Assembly (NCBI GenBank): GCA_022561875.1
Contig: JADFQJ010000008.1
Span: 8,638 to 72,637, forward strand
Origin: Bacteroidota bacterium
GTDB taxonomy: Bacteria > Bacteroidota > Bacteroidia > Bacteroidales > VadinHA17
Direction of reading: 5' to 3'
Length of the DNA: 64,000 nucleotides
A program made the translations under genes and the position numbers. The notes beneath the pieces were generated by a model. It worked only from the letters and a program-made list of their open reading frames with translations, ran no database searches and was not told where the DNA came from. Below are positions 3,762 through 64,000 of the stretch, piece by piece (position 1 is the stretch's first letter; each line of letters opens with the position of its first letter).

Positions 3762-4837
3762 ACGTATGCCTGGTTCCTCAGCTGTGGTATAAATCCGGCT
3801 TCCCTGATAGCTGCCTGGATACTTTCAGCATCAAATTTATGCGAAGCGCCGGCTGCAGAAACTACATTTTCTTCGATCATTATGGAACCAAAATCATTTG
3901 CGCCGGCATGCAGGCAAAGCTGACCCGTTGATTTTCCGACAGTAAGCCATGACGCCTGAATGTTTTTTATATTTGGCAGGAATATTCTGCTTAATGCAAT
4001 AGTTCGTATATATTCTTCAGAGCTGATAGCGTTTTCTATACCCAGCTTACTTTTTAGAACTGTTCCCTGGTCCTGGAAAGTCCAGGGAATAAAGGCAATA
4101 AATCCCGGACTGGTATCCGGCTTTTCAGATTGCAAATCACGCAATACTTTTAAATGAGCAATCCGGTCTTTCTTTGATTCAATATGCCCGAACATCATGG
4201 TTGCAGAAGTTACAAGGTTCATTTTGTGAGCTTCCCTCATCACATCGAGCCATTCCCCGGTGTTTGCTTTTAACGGAGAAAGCTCCTTTCGTATATGGTC
4301 ACAAAGTATTTCGGCTCCGGCACCGGGCAGACTATCAAGTCCGGCACTGACCAGCTCTTCAAGCACTTTACGGAATGAAAGCTTCTCTTTGCGGGCAATA
4401 TGTACAATTTCCGGCGGACTTAATGCATGAAGCCTTAGTTCCGGGAATAATTCCTTCAATCTGCTGAATAACCCGGTATAAAATCCCAAACCGAGTTTAG
4501 GATGAAGCCCTCCCTGTAATAGTAATTGATTACCACCTTGATTGAAAAGCGTTTTGATCTTTTTCTGGTATTCTTCAATGGAAGTGATGTAACCGTCTGA
4601 GGCATTTTTTTTCCTGTAGAAATTACAGAATTTGCATTGTGAATAACAGATGTTTGTAATATTGACATTTCTGTCAATGATCCATGTTACTTTATTACCC
4701 GGTACAAGTTTCTGTCTTATCTGGCTGGCAACAAAAATAAGTTCATCAGTAGGAGCTGATGTGTAAAGTTTCAGACCTTCATCCGGAGTAAGAAACTTAA
4801 GAGCCAGGGCTTTGGAATATATTGTTTCAAAGTTCAA
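3710..4837 (-). CDS. Radical SAM enzyme of the MqnC/MqnE/CofH family (futalosine-route menaquinone biosynthesis)
   Basis: CxxxCxxC-type cluster motif NICYSQCKFCNF. Also QGGLHP, GAGAEIL and PLKANTGEWLDVMREAH blocks as in MqnC/MqnE. I cannot separate MqnC from MqnE by eye. The last ~16 codons are encoded by the repeat region. Confidence 0.75.
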   Translation of the reverse strand: MNFETIYSKALALKFLTPDEGLKLYTSAPTDELIFVASQIRQKLVPGNKVTWIIDRNVNITNICYSQCKFCNFYRKKNASDGYITSIEEYQKKIKTLFNQGGNQLLLQGGLHPKLGLGFYTGLFSRLKELFPELRLHALSPPEIVHIARKEKLSFRKVLEELVSAGLDSLPGAGAEILCDHIRKELSPLKANTGEWLDVMREAHKMNLVTSATMMFGHIESKKDRIAHLKVLRDLQSEKPDTSPGFIAFIPWTFQDQGTVLKSKLGIENAISSEEYIRTIALSRIFLPNIKNIQASWLTVGKSTGQLCLHAGANDFGSIMIEENVVSAAGASHKFDAESIQAAIREAGFIPQLRNQAYVEEWNDGRLKKSKSRKV

Positions 4838-60499: not shown

Positions 60500-61018
60500 A
60501 TGAAATATTTCATATATATAACACTGTTTTTTTTTGGGGTCTTACTCCAGGGATGTAAGATAAACTACTCATTTTCCGGAGCCAATATTTCACCGGAAAT
60601 AAATACAGTGTCGGTTCAGTATTTCCCAAACAGGGTAACCCCGGGAAACGGTTTTGTAAATCCGGATTTCAGTCAGGTTTTTACTGATGCTTTAAAAGAT
60701 AAGATCAAAGAACAGACCAGGCTCAATTTTGGTGAAGATTTTGGGGATGTGAATTTCGAAGGGGAAATAACAATGTATAAAACTGCCCCCCTTGCAGTTA
60801 CAGGACGGGAAATTGCCGAATTAAACAGGTTTACTATTACAGTGCGGGTAAAGTATACTAATACCTTTAATCCTGATGAAAGCTTTGATACAAAATTCTC
60901 AAGATATGAAGATTATGAAAGTTCAAAGGATCTGCAGTCTGTGGAGCAGGACCTTTCAGAAAAAATACTTGAACAACTGACAGAAGATATTTTTAACCAG
61001 GCATTTGTAAATTGGTAG
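60500..61018 (+). CDS. lptE: LptE-like lipoprotein
   Basis: 172 aa with lipobox LLQGC. Its position directly after the sigma-54 activator is the usual Bacteroidota arrangement for LptE-family proteins. The assignment rests on synteny and size. Confidence 0.6.
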   Translation: MKYFIYITLFFFGVLLQGCKINYSFSGANISPEINTVSVQYFPNRVTPGNGFVNPDFSQVFTDALKDKIKEQTRLNFGEDFGDVNFEGEITMYKTAPLAVTGREIAELNRFTITVRVKYTNTFNPDESFDTKFSRYEDYESSKDLQSVEQDLSEKILEQLTEDIFNQAFVNW

Positions 61019-61098
61019 AAATATAATTATTACCTTTATATTTTGTCTTTATGAATTACGGTAACATATGTATTTGTTAAGTATTAGTAAATTAATCT

Positions 61099-62196
61099 AT
61101 GAACAGGGATGAATTCCTGAAATATTTAGAGCACCCCGGACAACTTGACAAGAGAAGTATTCTGGAAATACATGAACTTCTTAATGAATTTCCCTATTTC
61201 CAGACTGCACATATGATGTTGTTGAAAAATCTTTATATCCTTGGGAATATTAAATTTGACAGGCAGTTAAGAAAGTCAGCAGCTTATATAGGCGACAGAA
61301 GTGTGCTTTATTATCTTTTGCATCAGCCGGGGATTAACGGGGAGGACAAACCCAAAGAAAGTGAACCTGACCAAAAAACTGAAAGACCGGTAACAGAAAA
61401 ACCGAAAGATAAAATCACGAAGAAAAAGGAACCTGAAATTAAGGTTGAAAAAGAGAAAGCTGAACGGGATAAGAAACAGGAAAAAGAAGTCCTGGCTGAC
61501 GTGATTCTAAAGAGGATTGAAGAAATTAAGCAGAGACGGGATGCATATAAAGCCGGGAAGCTTTATACTTCAAAAACAGCTTCCCTTGAAAAGCAAGCGA
61601 GTACAGGTGAAAGGAGCGTTGCTGATGAAATCCTGAAGGAATTAGCAGAAAAGAAGTCTGGTGAAGCCAAAAGTGCGGATGCTAAGGAATATGTAAAAAA
61701 AACAGCGAAAAAAAAAACGGAAGATCAAAAAAAAGAGGGAAAAGAAAGCCAGATCCTGGAAATAGGGAATGAGAATGAGGTTATCGAAGATAATATCGGA
61801 CAAACGGAACAAGGAGATCAGGGTGAACTGAAAGAAATGGCAGGCAGTGATGAATTACTTGAGTTGGAAGAGGAAAGCATGCCGGAGAATTTTCAGGATA
61901 CACCTGACGAAAAAATAGCAAACGATGAACTTATCAACAAGTTCATTGAAAACAGCCCTCGTATTTTACCCCAAAAGGAAAATATCCCGGATGAGGAACA
62001 AACAGATATTTCAGAATCGAGTGTAGAAGAGAATGAAGGTTTTATTACCGAAACCCTTGCAAAAATATATATCAACCAGGGTTATTATTCGAAAGCTATT
62101 TTTGCTTATGAGAAATTAGGTTTGAAATTTCCGGAAAAAAGTAGTTACTTTGCAATTCAAATTGGAAAAATAAAGAAATTAATTAACGAACTATAA
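61099..62196 (+). CDS. K/E-rich protein with C-terminal TPR-like helix pair
   Basis: 365 aa with a central low-complexity K/E region and a C-terminal [24 protein letters not shown]-like motif. Confidence 0.65.
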
Positions 62197-62406
62197 ATCA
62201 TTTAAAAATGGGTCAATAGTTTTAATCAGTTCAAAATCACAAAAAACCAATAAATAAAAAGTCCAAAAAATTAGTGATAAAGTTATAATTCTTGTAATAT
62301 TTAAAGCTAAATTAGAAACTTCTAATTTTTCACTACTCTTATCAAATAAAGAAACTGTTCCTAATAATTGCATACAAATAACAACTATTAAATAAATTTT
62401 TAACAT
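62191..62406 (-). CDS. Small hydrophobic protein (71 aa, about two TM segments), hypothetical
   Basis: I prefer the start ATG 62406 ([16 protein letters not shown]...) within the 88-aa track ORF. Its stop overlaps the 3' end of the convergent 61099..62196 gene by 6 nt. It lies in the AT-rich terminal segment. Confidence 0.3.
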
Positions 62407-62619
62407 AATTTTATTCAGTAGTATTCTTATCCTTAGCATCATTATCATTAACATCATTATCCTTATCTTGTTGAACTAAATAATGCTCACCAAGATGATC
62501 TTCAGAAGGATCATTAGAATCATTATTATATATTTTTATAAGATTTTCATAATCTTCTACTAAAGCTTTATAGTTTTTTACAAACAATTTTAAACATAAA
62601 TCAACCCTCTAAACTCATA

Positions 62620-62713
62620 AGAGCGGTTCGAACAACGTCCGACTGGGGGAGTTTTTGACTAAAGAGCGAGGTAATACCTCGCTTTTTGGGTTTATGGTAA
62701 AGTGGCATTGACA
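62620..62713 (+). repeat. Copy A of a duplicated ~95-nt element (conserved 5' part, terminator hairpin, GCATTGACAAAAT box)
   Basis: agagcggttcgaacaacgtccgactgggggagtttttgactaaagagcgaggtaatacctcgctttttgggtt...gcattgacaaaat. Copy B at 63116-63208 is near-identical. The hairpin is GCGAGG (62666-62671) / CCTCGC (62677-62682) plus T5. Confidence 0.85.
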
Positions 62714-62736
62714 AAATAGACTTTATATTATATAAT
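62708..62736 (+). promoter_or_regulatory. Consensus sigma-70/SigA-type promoter (TTGACA-N17-TATAAT)
   Basis: TTGACA at 62708-62713, exactly 17 nt, then TATAAT at 62731-62736. Downstream, AGGAGG (62766-62771) lies 5 nt before ATG 62777. Confidence 0.6.
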
Positions 62737-62776
62737 AATAAAGGTAAAAAATAGTTCTTGCAAAAAGGAGGAAAAA

Positions 62777-63064
62777 ATGTCATTGGACAATAAAAGACAG
62801 ATAATAGTTTTTGGAATTTTTGGATTTATGCTTGGAATTATAATCAGCGAACTAATCTTGATCAGTGTTTATGGCAGCAGTGAAATACTACCAGGTATAG
62901 TAGGCGTAAGTATACTAGCAGTACCTTTAACAATTGCCATCCTTTCCAACAGTAAGAGTAGAAAAATAACGACTGTTTCTTTAGCGATTTTTTTAGTTAT
63001 TTATACTATTCCTATTTTTATTACTATGGGATATTTACTTTATAGCATCCTAAACCAGGCTTAA
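62777..63064 (+). CDS. Small integral membrane protein (95 aa, three predicted TM segments), hypothetical
   Basis: A perfect AGGAGG ribosome site, its own promoter and its own terminator. The product is hydrophobic (IIVFGIFGFMLGIIISELILI.., GVSILAVPLTIAIL, SLAIFLVIYTIPIFITMGYLLY). Confidence 0.6.
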   Translation: MSLDNKRQIIVFGIFGFMLGIIISELILISVYGSSEILPGIVGVSILAVPLTIAILSNSKSRKITTVSLAIFLVIYTIPIFITMGYLLYSILNQA

Positions 63065-63078
63065 ATGCCTGGTTTTTT
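63055..63078 (+). terminator. Rho-independent terminator overlapping the stop codon of the 95-aa ORF
   Basis: CCAGGC (63055-63060) pairs with GCCTGG (63067-63072) around loop ttaaat, followed by T6. Confidence 0.7.
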
Positions 63079-63115
63079 CTTAAAAAATTAGATATAAGTT
63101 ATTTTTATTCCTACC

Positions 63116-63208
63116 AGAGCGGTTCGAACAACGTCCGATTAGGGGGAGTTTTTGACTAAAAGGCGAGGTAATCCCTCGCTTTTTGGGTTAAAGAAAGTTG
63201 CATTGACA
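63116..63208 (+). repeat. Copy B of the duplicated ~95-nt element
   Basis: agagcggttcgaacaacgtccgattagggggagtttttgactaaaaggcgaggtaatccctcgctttttgggtt...gcattgacaaaat. It is followed by TGcTATATT (63228-63236), AGGAGG (63266-63271) and ATG 63278. Confidence 0.85.
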
Positions 63209-63277
63209 AAATTCTAAAATTGTGTCATGCTATATTTAGTTTATTTGATAATAAACCTTAACAAGAGGAGGTTGACC

Positions 63278-64000
63278 ATGAAAAAAGAAATATCGATTAT
63301 AAGGTTTAAAAATAACCCGCTATTGCAGCCAAACCCAGAGAGTAGCTGGATGAACAAAAATATATTTAATTGTGGAGTTATAATTGATGAAGACGGCTTA
63401 TATAAAATGCTATTTCGCGGTGCTTCCACAGAAGATCAATCAATGTCTAGTTGCGGACTAGCTTTAAGTACGGAAGGGATAGAGTGGTATCCAATAGATA
63501 AACCAGTATTGAAGTCTGGATTTAACGACCATTGTATAAGAGGAATTGAAGATCCGCGAATTGTAAAATGGATTGATGGGTGGAAATATATTTTTGCCAC
63601 TGCCTCTTCATCCGCAGGCGGAAGAGTAGGTATCTGGAAGACGAAAAATTTTTTTGAATATGAATGGGTTGGTATCCCCTTTGACCAAGAGGATAAAGAC
63701 GCGTCTATTTTTCCAGAGCCGATTAATGGTTGGGTATATCTGATTCACCGAAAGGCTCCCCATATCTGGATTTCTCGGACAAAAGATTTAACACTAAGGA
63801 GCGGTTGGCAGGATAGCCAGATTTTGATCAATAGAGATCAATTTTATCGACACCCCGAACACAATGTTCTTCCCAGAAAGATAGGCATTGCCGGACCACC
63901 AATAAAAACCCCCGAGGGCTGGCTGTTAATTACGCATATTGTTCATCAATGGGACAAGAAAAAAACAAGATATTCTTATCTTCTTAACAGGTTATATTCA
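63278..64000 (+). CDS. GH130-like / DUF377-type beta-propeller glycosidase-phosphorylase homologue (3' end outside window)
   Basis: This ORF is not in the ORF track because it runs off the window. The frame is open from ATG 63278 to 64000 (241 codons). MKKEISIIRFKNNPLLQPNPESSWMNKNIFNCGVI...GLALSTEGIEWY...GIEDPRIVKWIDGWKYIFATA resembles the N-terminal blades of GH130/DUF377 proteins. Confidence 0.55.
   Translation, partial: MKKEISIIRFKNNPLLQPNPESSWMNKNIFNCGVIIDEDGLYKMLFRGASTEDQSMSSCGLALSTEGIEWYPIDKPVLKSGFNDHCIRGIEDPRIVKWIDGWKYIFATASSSAGGRVGIWKTKNFFEYEWVGIPFDQEDKDASIFPEPINGWVYLIHRKAPHIWISRTKDLTLRSGWQDSQILINRDQFYRHPEHNVLPRKIGIAGPPIKTPEGWLLITHIVHQWDKKKTRYSYLLNRLYS

Follow-up and report, generated by a model that had tools for sequence, protein, structure and literature searches.

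Gene expression in Bacteroidota is poor in Shine–Dalgarno (SD) sites and uses TAnnTTTG promoters, whereas other lineages use SD sites and sigma-70-consensus promoters. Chimeric contigs, targeted by GUNC, metaMIC and similar tools, can bring foreign DNA into a MAG. Interspecies chimeric contigs are reported to occur in many near-complete MAGs, where contamination estimates based on marker genes miss them; for example, they were found in 69% of the MEGAHIT MAGs and in 20% of the metaSPAdes MAGs built from CAMI data (bioRxiv 10.64898/2026.10.15.759294). In such cases the foreign DNA lies within a contig despite excellent marker statistics, and it is short, terminal and carries genes discordant with the other genomes of the species. 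Another related system is the PeSL of T4-type phages, in which a stem-loop terminator is followed by a sigma-70-type promoter (PMC2839356, PMC4122927). PeSLs are intergenic, multicopy and found in one orientation within hyperplastic regions; related genomes cease to be homologous at the unit, and small ORFs without assigned function come and go between one copy and the next.

The locus described here lies at the end of a 73,442-nt contig (C22) of a Bacteroidota MAG. The window (the whole 64,000-nt stretch analysed) stops 805 nt before the contig end, which corresponds to window coordinate 64805. The final 2,593 nt of the contig (window 62213 to 64805) are very probably an interspecies chimeric end, that is, Patescibacteria DNA mis-joined to a Bacteroidota contig, and we find no essential difference between this tail and the known MAG chimeras. 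Native DNA, both in the window and in the genome outside it, behaves as expected for the SD-poor Bacteroidota system, whereas the tail has the opposite style; the contrast is one of two organisms on one contig and not of two expression systems per cell. The features are as follows.

61099–62196, plus strand: last complete native gene, encoding a 365-aa TPR-like protein (ORF)
62208–62212, plus strand: native secG start, ATGGG, last native bases of the contig (same-strain alignments)
62212|62213: probable chimeric breakpoint; the native path continues with CTTTTACATATTGGTTTC and then C35 base 1, C22 continues instead with TCAATAGTTTTAATC
62213–62619, minus strand: foreign segment A, with small ORFs
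Stop 62191–62193, candidate ATGs 62457 and 62406, minus strand: hydrophobic junction ORF of 88 or 71 aa
62411–62587, minus strand: 58-aa D/N-rich ORF (segment A)
62620–62736, plus strand: cassette copy 1, with core AGAGCGGTTCGAACAACGTCCGACTGGGGGAG (62620–62651), hairpin (62659–62689) and TTGACA-N17-TATAAT (62708–62736)
62777–63064, plus strand: gene for a 95-aa predicted membrane protein of no Pfam family (AGGAGG 62766–62771)
63052–63075, plus strand: intrinsic terminator of the 95-aa gene
63116–63236, plus strand: cassette copy 2, with core (63116–63148), hairpin (about 63160–63185), TTGACA (63203–63208) and TGcTATATT (63228–63236)
63278–64270, plus strand: predicted gene for a 330-aa GH130-family glycosidase or phosphorylase (PF04041; AGGAGG 63266–63271)
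About 64283–64302: terminator beyond the window
About 64355–64805, minus strand: SDR gene fragment, cut by the contig end

Native gene order and the breakpoint in secG

The TPR-like gene lies downstream of lptE, and its product gives a weak C-terminal match to Pfam TPR_2, below the cut-off. An identical protein in a conserved neighbourhood was found on seven independent contigs (L033–L039) from seven samples, which match C22 at 99.8–100% up to C22:70849, i.e., window position 62212. In these contigs, secG (113 aa, PF03840) begins 12 nt after the TPR stop codon. The TPR-like gene, secG, groES and groEL are uninterrupted in five of the seven, which are the five long enough; they carry an intact 113-aa SecG and lack the tail. 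After window 62212, these bridging contigs have 18 nt and then match another contig of this MAG, C35, from its first base onward at 99.5–99.8%, an identity that extends over C35:1–3967 in L033–L036. In fact, the remainder of this genome's secG is found at C35:5–316 with its first codons missing. The left end of C35 is native secG sequence with no foreign DNA, and 18 nt are absent between C22 and C35. Similarly, secG is the next gene after the TPR-like gene in three same-genus and two same-family relatives, and the left side of the junction is syntenic with 30 relatives. The real chromosome runs from window 62212 through the 18 missing bases into C35, with secG, groES, groEL, ridA and lepA. The unbroken native sequence would read ...AAAAATGGG-CTTTTACATATTGGTTTC-AGCATTGATTC..., 62212 being joined directly to CTTTTACAT and then to C35.

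The alignments place the breakpoint 16 nt beyond the TPR stop codon and five nt into secG. The preliminary description had put the boundary at 62196, and the same-strain alignments displace it to 62212|62213; the convergent small ORF that it reported, located on the minus strand at 62191–62457, does overlap the TPR-like gene by its final 6 nt. Of the two explanations it offered for the boundary, a chimeric assembly junction is strongly supported by the five uninterrupted same-strain assemblies and by the start of C35 18 nt after the break. The two sides belong to different organisms (the left is 99.8–100% identical to same-strain contigs, the right 93–99% identical to Patescibacteria sequences), and the true continuation is contiguous in the five independent assemblies that bridge C22 and C35. 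The break in secG is a fragile spot for assembly, with strain SNPs within about 30 nt and the contig of another assembly likewise ending 9 nt past it. The native arrangement, the breakpoint, the donor affiliation and the multicopy cassette are shown by the sequences themselves; the mechanism of the mis-join is inferred, the assembler having probably prolonged the native end into AT-rich foreign sequence. A search for k-mers of at least 17 nt common to the junction and other contig ends returned only chance matches of 17–18 nt, none of them in C35, and so nothing that would reveal a wrong turn in the assembly graph.

Two further observations concern the join. A clean de Bruijn branch would not be expected to produce the 18-nt gap between C22 and C35, and this counts against the mis-join account. 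The minus-strand ORF of the foreign side is interrupted at the join too, consistent with a chimera: its last seven codons and stop codon come from native sequence, and its true end is therefore cut off. The segment A ORFs have no exact protein match elsewhere, and no other recorded contig carries the ORF that spans the junction.

Expression signals and composition of the tail

The abrupt change of expression signals noticed at about 62.2 kb is real, and involves AGGAGG sites, a perfect promoter and hairpin/T-run terminators. Both plus-strand ORFs of the tail carry AGGAGG, 5 nt before the ATG at 62777 and 6 nt before the ATG at 63278, respectively, with a chance of about 1e-4 for two out of two. 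By comparison, AGGAGG precedes none of the 41 crude gene calls in window 1–62215; for the remainder of the genome the figure is 19 of 2041 (0.9%). The promoter at 62708–62736 is the sole 12/12 match to TTGACA-N17-TATAAT within 61000–64000. The second promoter stands less firmly: its TTGACA and TATATT (63231–63236) are present as described, but they are separated by a non-canonical 22-nt spacer and the scan did not report them. The GC-stem/T-run terminators were found at 62659–62689 and 63052–63075, plus one inside the second repeat copy at about 63163–63179; overall, six terminator-like sites were observed against 1.6 +/- 1.4 in shuffled sequences. The two promoter/terminator sets exist, but they cannot be counted as independent, as both belong to a 99-nt repeat present here twice at about 90% identity.

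The tail had also been described as visibly more AT-rich, and this holds for segment A alone: 62213–62619 has 21.8% GC, lower than any of 3000 size-matched windows drawn at random from the genome, whereas the rest (36.2% for 62620–64350 and 40.9% for 64351–64805) is ordinary for this 38% GC genome. The k-mer comparison of the two sides did not single out the tail, which as a whole is no outlier (z = -0.5; tetranucleotide, third-order Markov score), and composition is therefore unusable as independent proof of foreignness. Chimeras can be usefully flagged, with no reference needed, by a change of SD and promoter style at the end of a contig, even where there is no k-mer outlier.

Donor of the tail and alternative readings

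The main gene of the tail is predicted from its profile match to be a full-length member of the GH130 family (PF04041; E 2.3e-35, 122.5 bits against a cut-off of 26, residues 26–305 of 330). It runs past the window, as had been anticipated. The other explanation in the preliminary description, recent acquisition from a Firmicutes-like lineage, is not supported, and the protein and DNA matches point instead to Patescibacteria (candidate phyla radiation). Among 185,579 species genomes searched, GH130 shows 74–76% amino acid identity to three Patescibacteria MAGs, and it is 92% (amino acid) and 93% (nucleotide) identical to the Patescibacteria contigs L023 and L032. The closest contig, L032, belongs to the NCBI 'Patescibacteria group bacterium' GCA_022562675.1 and carries cellular genes for an rpoD-like sigma-70 factor, tRNA-Asn, UPF0182 and a DedA-like membrane protein. 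In addition, an identical 95-aa protein is encoded on two independent short ENA contigs (L021 and L022) with no Bacteroidota flank. From 62623 onward the window is 99% identical to these two contigs, which diverge left of the core. The tail's AGGAGG sites, consensus sigma-70 promoter and strong terminators would be the donor's own signal style. About three of ten genes on L032 have AGGAGG and several are apparently leaderless, so the donor itself is not uniformly SD-led. In keeping with a mis-join between them, the two organisms share two sample series.

If the tail is a chimeric end, what looks like an island with its own expression system arose during assembly and has no biological weight for this genome. 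The matter is mainly one of data hygiene: a MAG with 98% completeness and 0.04% contamination by marker statistics contains 2.6 kb from a different phylum. As a consequence, the tail genes (GH130 glycosidase, 95-aa membrane protein and SDR fragment) stand under the wrong organism in the public record, where secG also looks broken. Left uncorrected, the record would suggest an inter-phylum gene transfer from Patescibacteria to Bacteroidota.

In a refinement compatible with the chimera reading, the tail would combine DNA from at least two foreign genomes, with further mis-joins at the repeated cassette, near 62586–62620 and near 64350. The 95-aa and GH130 genes would keep their Patescibacteria donor, and segment A and the SDR fragment would have other sources. 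Such a mosaic is possible, although rather doubtful. Homology to L021/L022 stops left of the core at 62623. That to L023/L032 stops at 64350, in the 5' part of the repeat unit and about 5 nt away from the stop codon of the SDR gene. The nearest named relatives of the SDR are from Bacteroidota, at about 50% identity (its best matches are at most 53% identical, the named ones mostly Bacteroidota), and segment A has 21.8% GC versus 36% for segment B. On the other hand, a 5' extension of the repeat unit enters segment A, whose right end from about 62586 matches the donor unit (L021:198–263 versus 62586–62651, 85% over 66 nt by blastn), so A and B may be true donor neighbours. Moreover, donor strains differ in gene content exactly at the cassettes, and the breaks may therefore be real strain variation. 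The SDR fragment was also considered as a native flank, i.e., as the other side of a two-sided insertion, and discarded: it shows 38–41% identity to the SDRs of relatives, and the genome has its own copy on C86.

Far less probable is a real insertion, in which at least 2.6 kb of Patescibacteria DNA would lie within secG of the sampled strain or sub-population, with its right junction unassembled. Many Patescibacteria are episymbionts, and the two organisms co-occur in two sample series (ZHOU22-1_SAMN162526xx and ERZ272674xx), so a transfer is conceivable. The join contains no Ns and reads as continuous sequence across 62212|62213, and the k-mer composition of the tail is compatible with the host. 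However, secG is broken after codon 2, yet the same MAG has the remainder at the C35 start without foreign DNA, and five other same-strain assemblies are uninterrupted. The tail DNA is absent from 30 relatives and from every other contig of this genome, and the join also truncates the foreign ORF. A genomic island would be recognised by native DNA on both sides of it and an intact or duplicated target, or by mobility genes or integration at a tRNA site. Here there is a left junction only, with no target repeat or right junction found; the tail has no integrase or other mobility gene, and the join falls inside the secG coding sequence. No tRNA lies in the tail, and Rfam gave only a non-significant SSRC38 match (E 0.28) there. 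The search for mobility genes past 64000 that had been proposed met only the GH130 end, the terminator and the SDR fragment, and has nothing further to inspect because the contig ends at 64805. Finally, almost no credence can be given to the tail being part of a phage or plasmid in a Bacteroidota host: repeated terminator–promoter cassettes beside small hypothetical ORFs do resemble the PeSLs of T4-type phages (PMC2839356, PMC4122927), but the closest contig, L032, has cellular genes and is filed by NCBI under Patescibacteria, a core scan of IMG/VR gave no true match and two by chance, in GC-rich coding DNA, and SD and sigma-70 signals are ill-suited to such a host.

The repeated terminator–promoter cassette

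Returning to the tail as a chimeric end of Patescibacteria origin, the donor's terminator–promoter cassette is a separate and mildly interesting biological lead. Most of the tail signals lie inside this cassette, which is roughly 100–130 nt long and consists of a conserved core, then a terminator, then a promoter; it recurs between many genes of the donor lineage. There are 12 core copies across the tail, L021, L022, L023 and L032, all on the gene strand, although L023 largely repeats L032 and fewer are independent. Nine have hairpin and promoter, one has a promoter without hairpin, and two have neither. For example, the GCA_022562675.1 contig holds 6–7 cassette copies or partial copies, and the copy 2 arrangement is also found upstream of GH130 in L023 and L032. 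The gene order between copies varies, being 192aa-133aa-95aa-GH130 in L021/L022 versus 192aa-GH130 in L032.

Searches with the core gave no matches in the three Patescibacteria genomes with 74–76% GH130, in 401 Patescibacteria species genomes or in JGI metagenome contigs. Missing from the genome, metagenome and virus sets searched, the cassette is therefore lineage-restricted. In the donor contigs, Rfam has no family for the cassette, its sole match being the bona fide tRNA-Asn. An integron attC or CRISPR reading of the repeat was rejected on inspection: R''/R' boxes are lacking, the copies are irregularly spaced (500–1000 nt) and genes lie between them.

The donor cassette shares with PeSLs the order of terminator and promoter, the single orientation, the intergenic multicopy distribution, the breaks in homology and the gain or loss of small ORFs. 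It differs in lying on a cellular Patescibacteria contig (rpoD, tRNA, UPF0182) and in having the extra 32-nt core 5' of the terminator, and there is no sequence similarity between the two. By analogy, the cassette would work like a PeSL without being a member of the PeSL family. We infer recombination at the cassette from four short-read assemblies, which are themselves able to mis-join at repeats. A joint reading, plausible although tentative, is that the tail is a genuine Patescibacteria fragment in which a cassette placed between many genes may mark strain differences in small-ORF cassettes, as a cellular analogue of PeSLs. If true, the cassette would drive modular gene shuffling in an ultra-small genome. 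The 32-nt core is highly conserved and contains the GGTTCGAAC motif, and its GGGGGAG(CCA)-like end is reminiscent of the 3' part of a tRNA.

Native sequence beyond the TPR-like gene

The window spans positions 8638-72637 of contig C22, which is 73,442 nt long, so that the contig end corresponds to window coordinate 64805; the tail discussed here (62213-64805) makes up its terminal 2.6 kb. C22 belongs to an assembly of 104 contigs and 2.77 Mb, rated 98% complete and 0.04% contaminated. The tail extends past the window with the following features.

ORF ending at 64270: GH130, 330 aa
3' of the GH130 ORF, before the SDR fragment: terminator
64355-64805 (window-equivalent), minus strand: SDR fragment, 149 aa, benzil/sepiapterin-reductase-like, cut by the contig end

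On the native side, the last complete gene is the TPR-like gene (61099-62196, plus strand). In an exact-protein look-up (ENA, NCBI and Logan), the identical 365-aa protein has been found on seven independent contigs from seven samples, and in the five contigs that are long enough an intact 113-aa SecG (PF03840), GroES, GroEL, RidA and LepA come next in that order. Same-strain contigs match C22 at 99.8-100% DNA identity up to C22:70849 (window 62212); past this point, the long ones continue with 18 nt (CTTTTACATATTGGTTTC) and then with another contig of the same genome, C35, from its position 1 onward at 99.5-99.8% identity. Likewise, the gene that directly follows the TPR-like gene in three relatives of the same genus and two of the same family has its counterpart at the opening of C35, where the first codons are missing, and in the alignment C22 departs from these relatives only after the TPR stop codon, the spacer and ATGGG. 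Because the same-strain contigs run from C22:70849 via the 18 nt into C35:1, both contigs adjoin in the real chromosome, and the alignments place the breakpoint at 62212|62213, 5 nt into secG. As assembled, nucleotides 1-5 of secG are on C22 (window 62208-62212) and 24-342 on C35, the 18 nt between them being in neither.

At the start of secG the assembly graph is repeatedly weak: independent assemblies of the strain are prone to break a few tens of nucleotides or less from it, and the region has strain-level SNPs, which lie at most about 30 nt from the break (they separate L033 from L034-L038, all same-strain contigs, with a further one at C35 position 11). Given the nearby SNPs and the end of L037, an independent assembly, 9 nt beyond the breakpoint, the place is fragile for the assembler. 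Another same-strain contig, L039, stops 70 nt beyond the TPR stop codon.

Expression signals and donor of the tail

An abrupt switch of expression signals at ~62.2 kb had been claimed in the preliminary description, and this observation is confirmed both by sequence features and by genome-wide AGGAGG counts. The motif is present at 62766-62771 (5 nt before the ATG at 62777) and 63266-63271 (6 nt before the ATG at 63278), whereas it precedes none of the 41 gene calls in window 1-62215 and only 19 of 2041 crude gene calls (0.9%) in the genome outside the window; because it is so rare upstream of native gene calls, the switch is not due to chance. The reported TTGACA-N17-TATAAT promoter at 62708-62736 is indeed perfect, and the sole 12/12 match within 61000-64000; hairpin/T-run terminators, also described there, lie at 62659-62689, at 63052-63075 and within the second repeat copy. 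The second proposed promoter does contain TTGACA, but with its 22-nt spacer it is not canonical. Similarly, the tail had been called more AT-rich, which holds for 62213-62619 only (21.8% GC); the remainder has a GC content ordinary for this genome, and by k-mer composition the tail as a whole does not stand out. Both promoter/terminator sets are copies, about 90% identical, of a single 99-nt direct repeat, and the signals are part of a composite unit of the donor.

This donor is not the Firmicutes-like lineage first proposed; GH130 protein and DNA matches identify it as Patescibacteria. Among 185,579 species genomes, close relatives of the GH130 protein occur only in three Patescibacteria MAGs (74-76% amino acid identity). 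The best match in a large protein collection, P0001 (92% identical), is encoded on contig L023, whose UPF0182 gene is 98% identical to NCBI MCH7759014.1 ("Patescibacteria group bacterium"). At the DNA level, window 63117-64350 is 93% identical to L032 (JADFOV010000017.1 of GCA_022562675.1, 11.2 kb), on which rpoD, tRNA-Asn, small ORFs, GH130, an M10-like peptidase and UPF0182 are found. For the region of the 95-aa gene, two short ENA contigs, L021 and L022, match at 99% identity. None of these four contigs has a Bacteroidota flank, the tail DNA was found neither in 30 relatives nor on the other contigs of this assembly, and the junction-spanning ORF was found on no other contig on record.

Of the two explanations offered at the outset, an assembly junction is borne out by the native C22-C35 continuation in same-strain contigs together with the Patescibacteria tail: very probably, the tail is an interspecies chimeric contig end, and it is not a real feature of this genome. 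A real insertion of foreign DNA into the chromosome of this strain is highly improbable, since it would destroy secG, has no right junction, is absent from five other same-strain assemblies and is contradicted by C35, whose first bases, 18 nt downstream, are native secG sequence. Host and donor are both present in the same two sample series, and therefore a mis-join is possible; no shared k-mer was found that would account for the mis-traversal by the assembler. Such chimeric contigs are reported to be frequent among near-complete MAGs and to go undetected by marker-based quality scores (bioRxiv 10.64898/2026.10.15.759294). In practice, C22 should be cut at 70,849|70,850, the tail discarded and C22 linked to C35, the two being joinable via sequence from the five other same-strain assemblies.

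Edges of the tail

Homology to the known donor contigs ends at 62623 on the left and 64350 on the right. The 5' extension of the repeat unit reaches into the left part of the tail, segment A (62213-62619). In this strain of the donor, the segment and the SDR fragment could be genuine neighbours; alternatively, they could result from additional mis-joining at the repeat. For the SDR fragment, a further mis-join is possible because a truncated repeat unit begins or ends about 5 nt away from its stop codon. No relative of the fragment above 53% identity was found among 5.8 billion protein clusters, where named matches are mostly Bacteroidota. A native origin in this genus was rejected.

The composite unit of the donor

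The unit is multicopy and sits between genes of a Patescibacteria lineage. It comprises, in order, a strictly conserved 32-nt core (AGAGCGGTTCGAACAACGTCCGACTGGGGGAG), an A-tract/hairpin/T-tract terminator (GCGAGG-loop-CCTCGC) and, about 15 nt beyond it, GCATTGACAAAAT as -35 element of a TTGACA promoter. Across the tail, L021, L022, L023 and L032 the core is present in twelve copies, each on the gene strand, although not all are independent, as L023 largely repeats L032.

Positions of the unit
Window: 62620-62736, 63116-63236
L032: about 1176, 2602, 3197, 4881, 5728, 6978, 10835
L021: 232, 1000
L022: 735, 1233

Homology between strains breaks off at the units, and small ORFs are gained or lost between them; for example, the gene order is 192aa-133aa-95aa-GH130 in L021 and L022 but 192aa-GH130 in L032. 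In this respect, and in functioning as a terminator/promoter cassette, the unit resembles PeSL of T4-type phages, where strain differences in gene content likewise start and stop at the unit (PMC2839356; PMC4122927). On the other hand, its location is a cellular genome and it includes an additional conserved core; it is therefore not a member of the PeSL family. Searches of 401 other Patescibacteria genomes and of JGI metagenome contigs gave no match to the core, IMG/VR gave chance matches only, and no Rfam family exists for the unit.

One core copy (L032:6960-7100; L023 about 2178-2300) is interrupted by a 59-nt hairpin between GGTTCGAAC and CGTTGTCCGACTTGGGGGAGCCA, and its upstream CCCCCAG is able to pair with the 3' CTTGGGGG in an acceptor-stem-like manner. 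This pairing, together with the GAGCCA at the end of several core copies, is a hint that the core is tRNA-3'-derived or tRNA-like in origin; the hairpin-bearing copy is not called as a tRNA by ARAGORN or the Rfam tRNA model. After the tRNA-Asn gene of L032, the terminator part occurs alone.

Regarding translation, AGGAGG is present for only about 3 of 10 L032 genes. The L032 genes at 4429, 5058, 7198 and 8065 have no SD and carry a TATAxT-like box a few nucleotides upstream of the ATG, which suggests that several L032 genes have leaderless or very short-leader mRNAs, beside SD-led genes.
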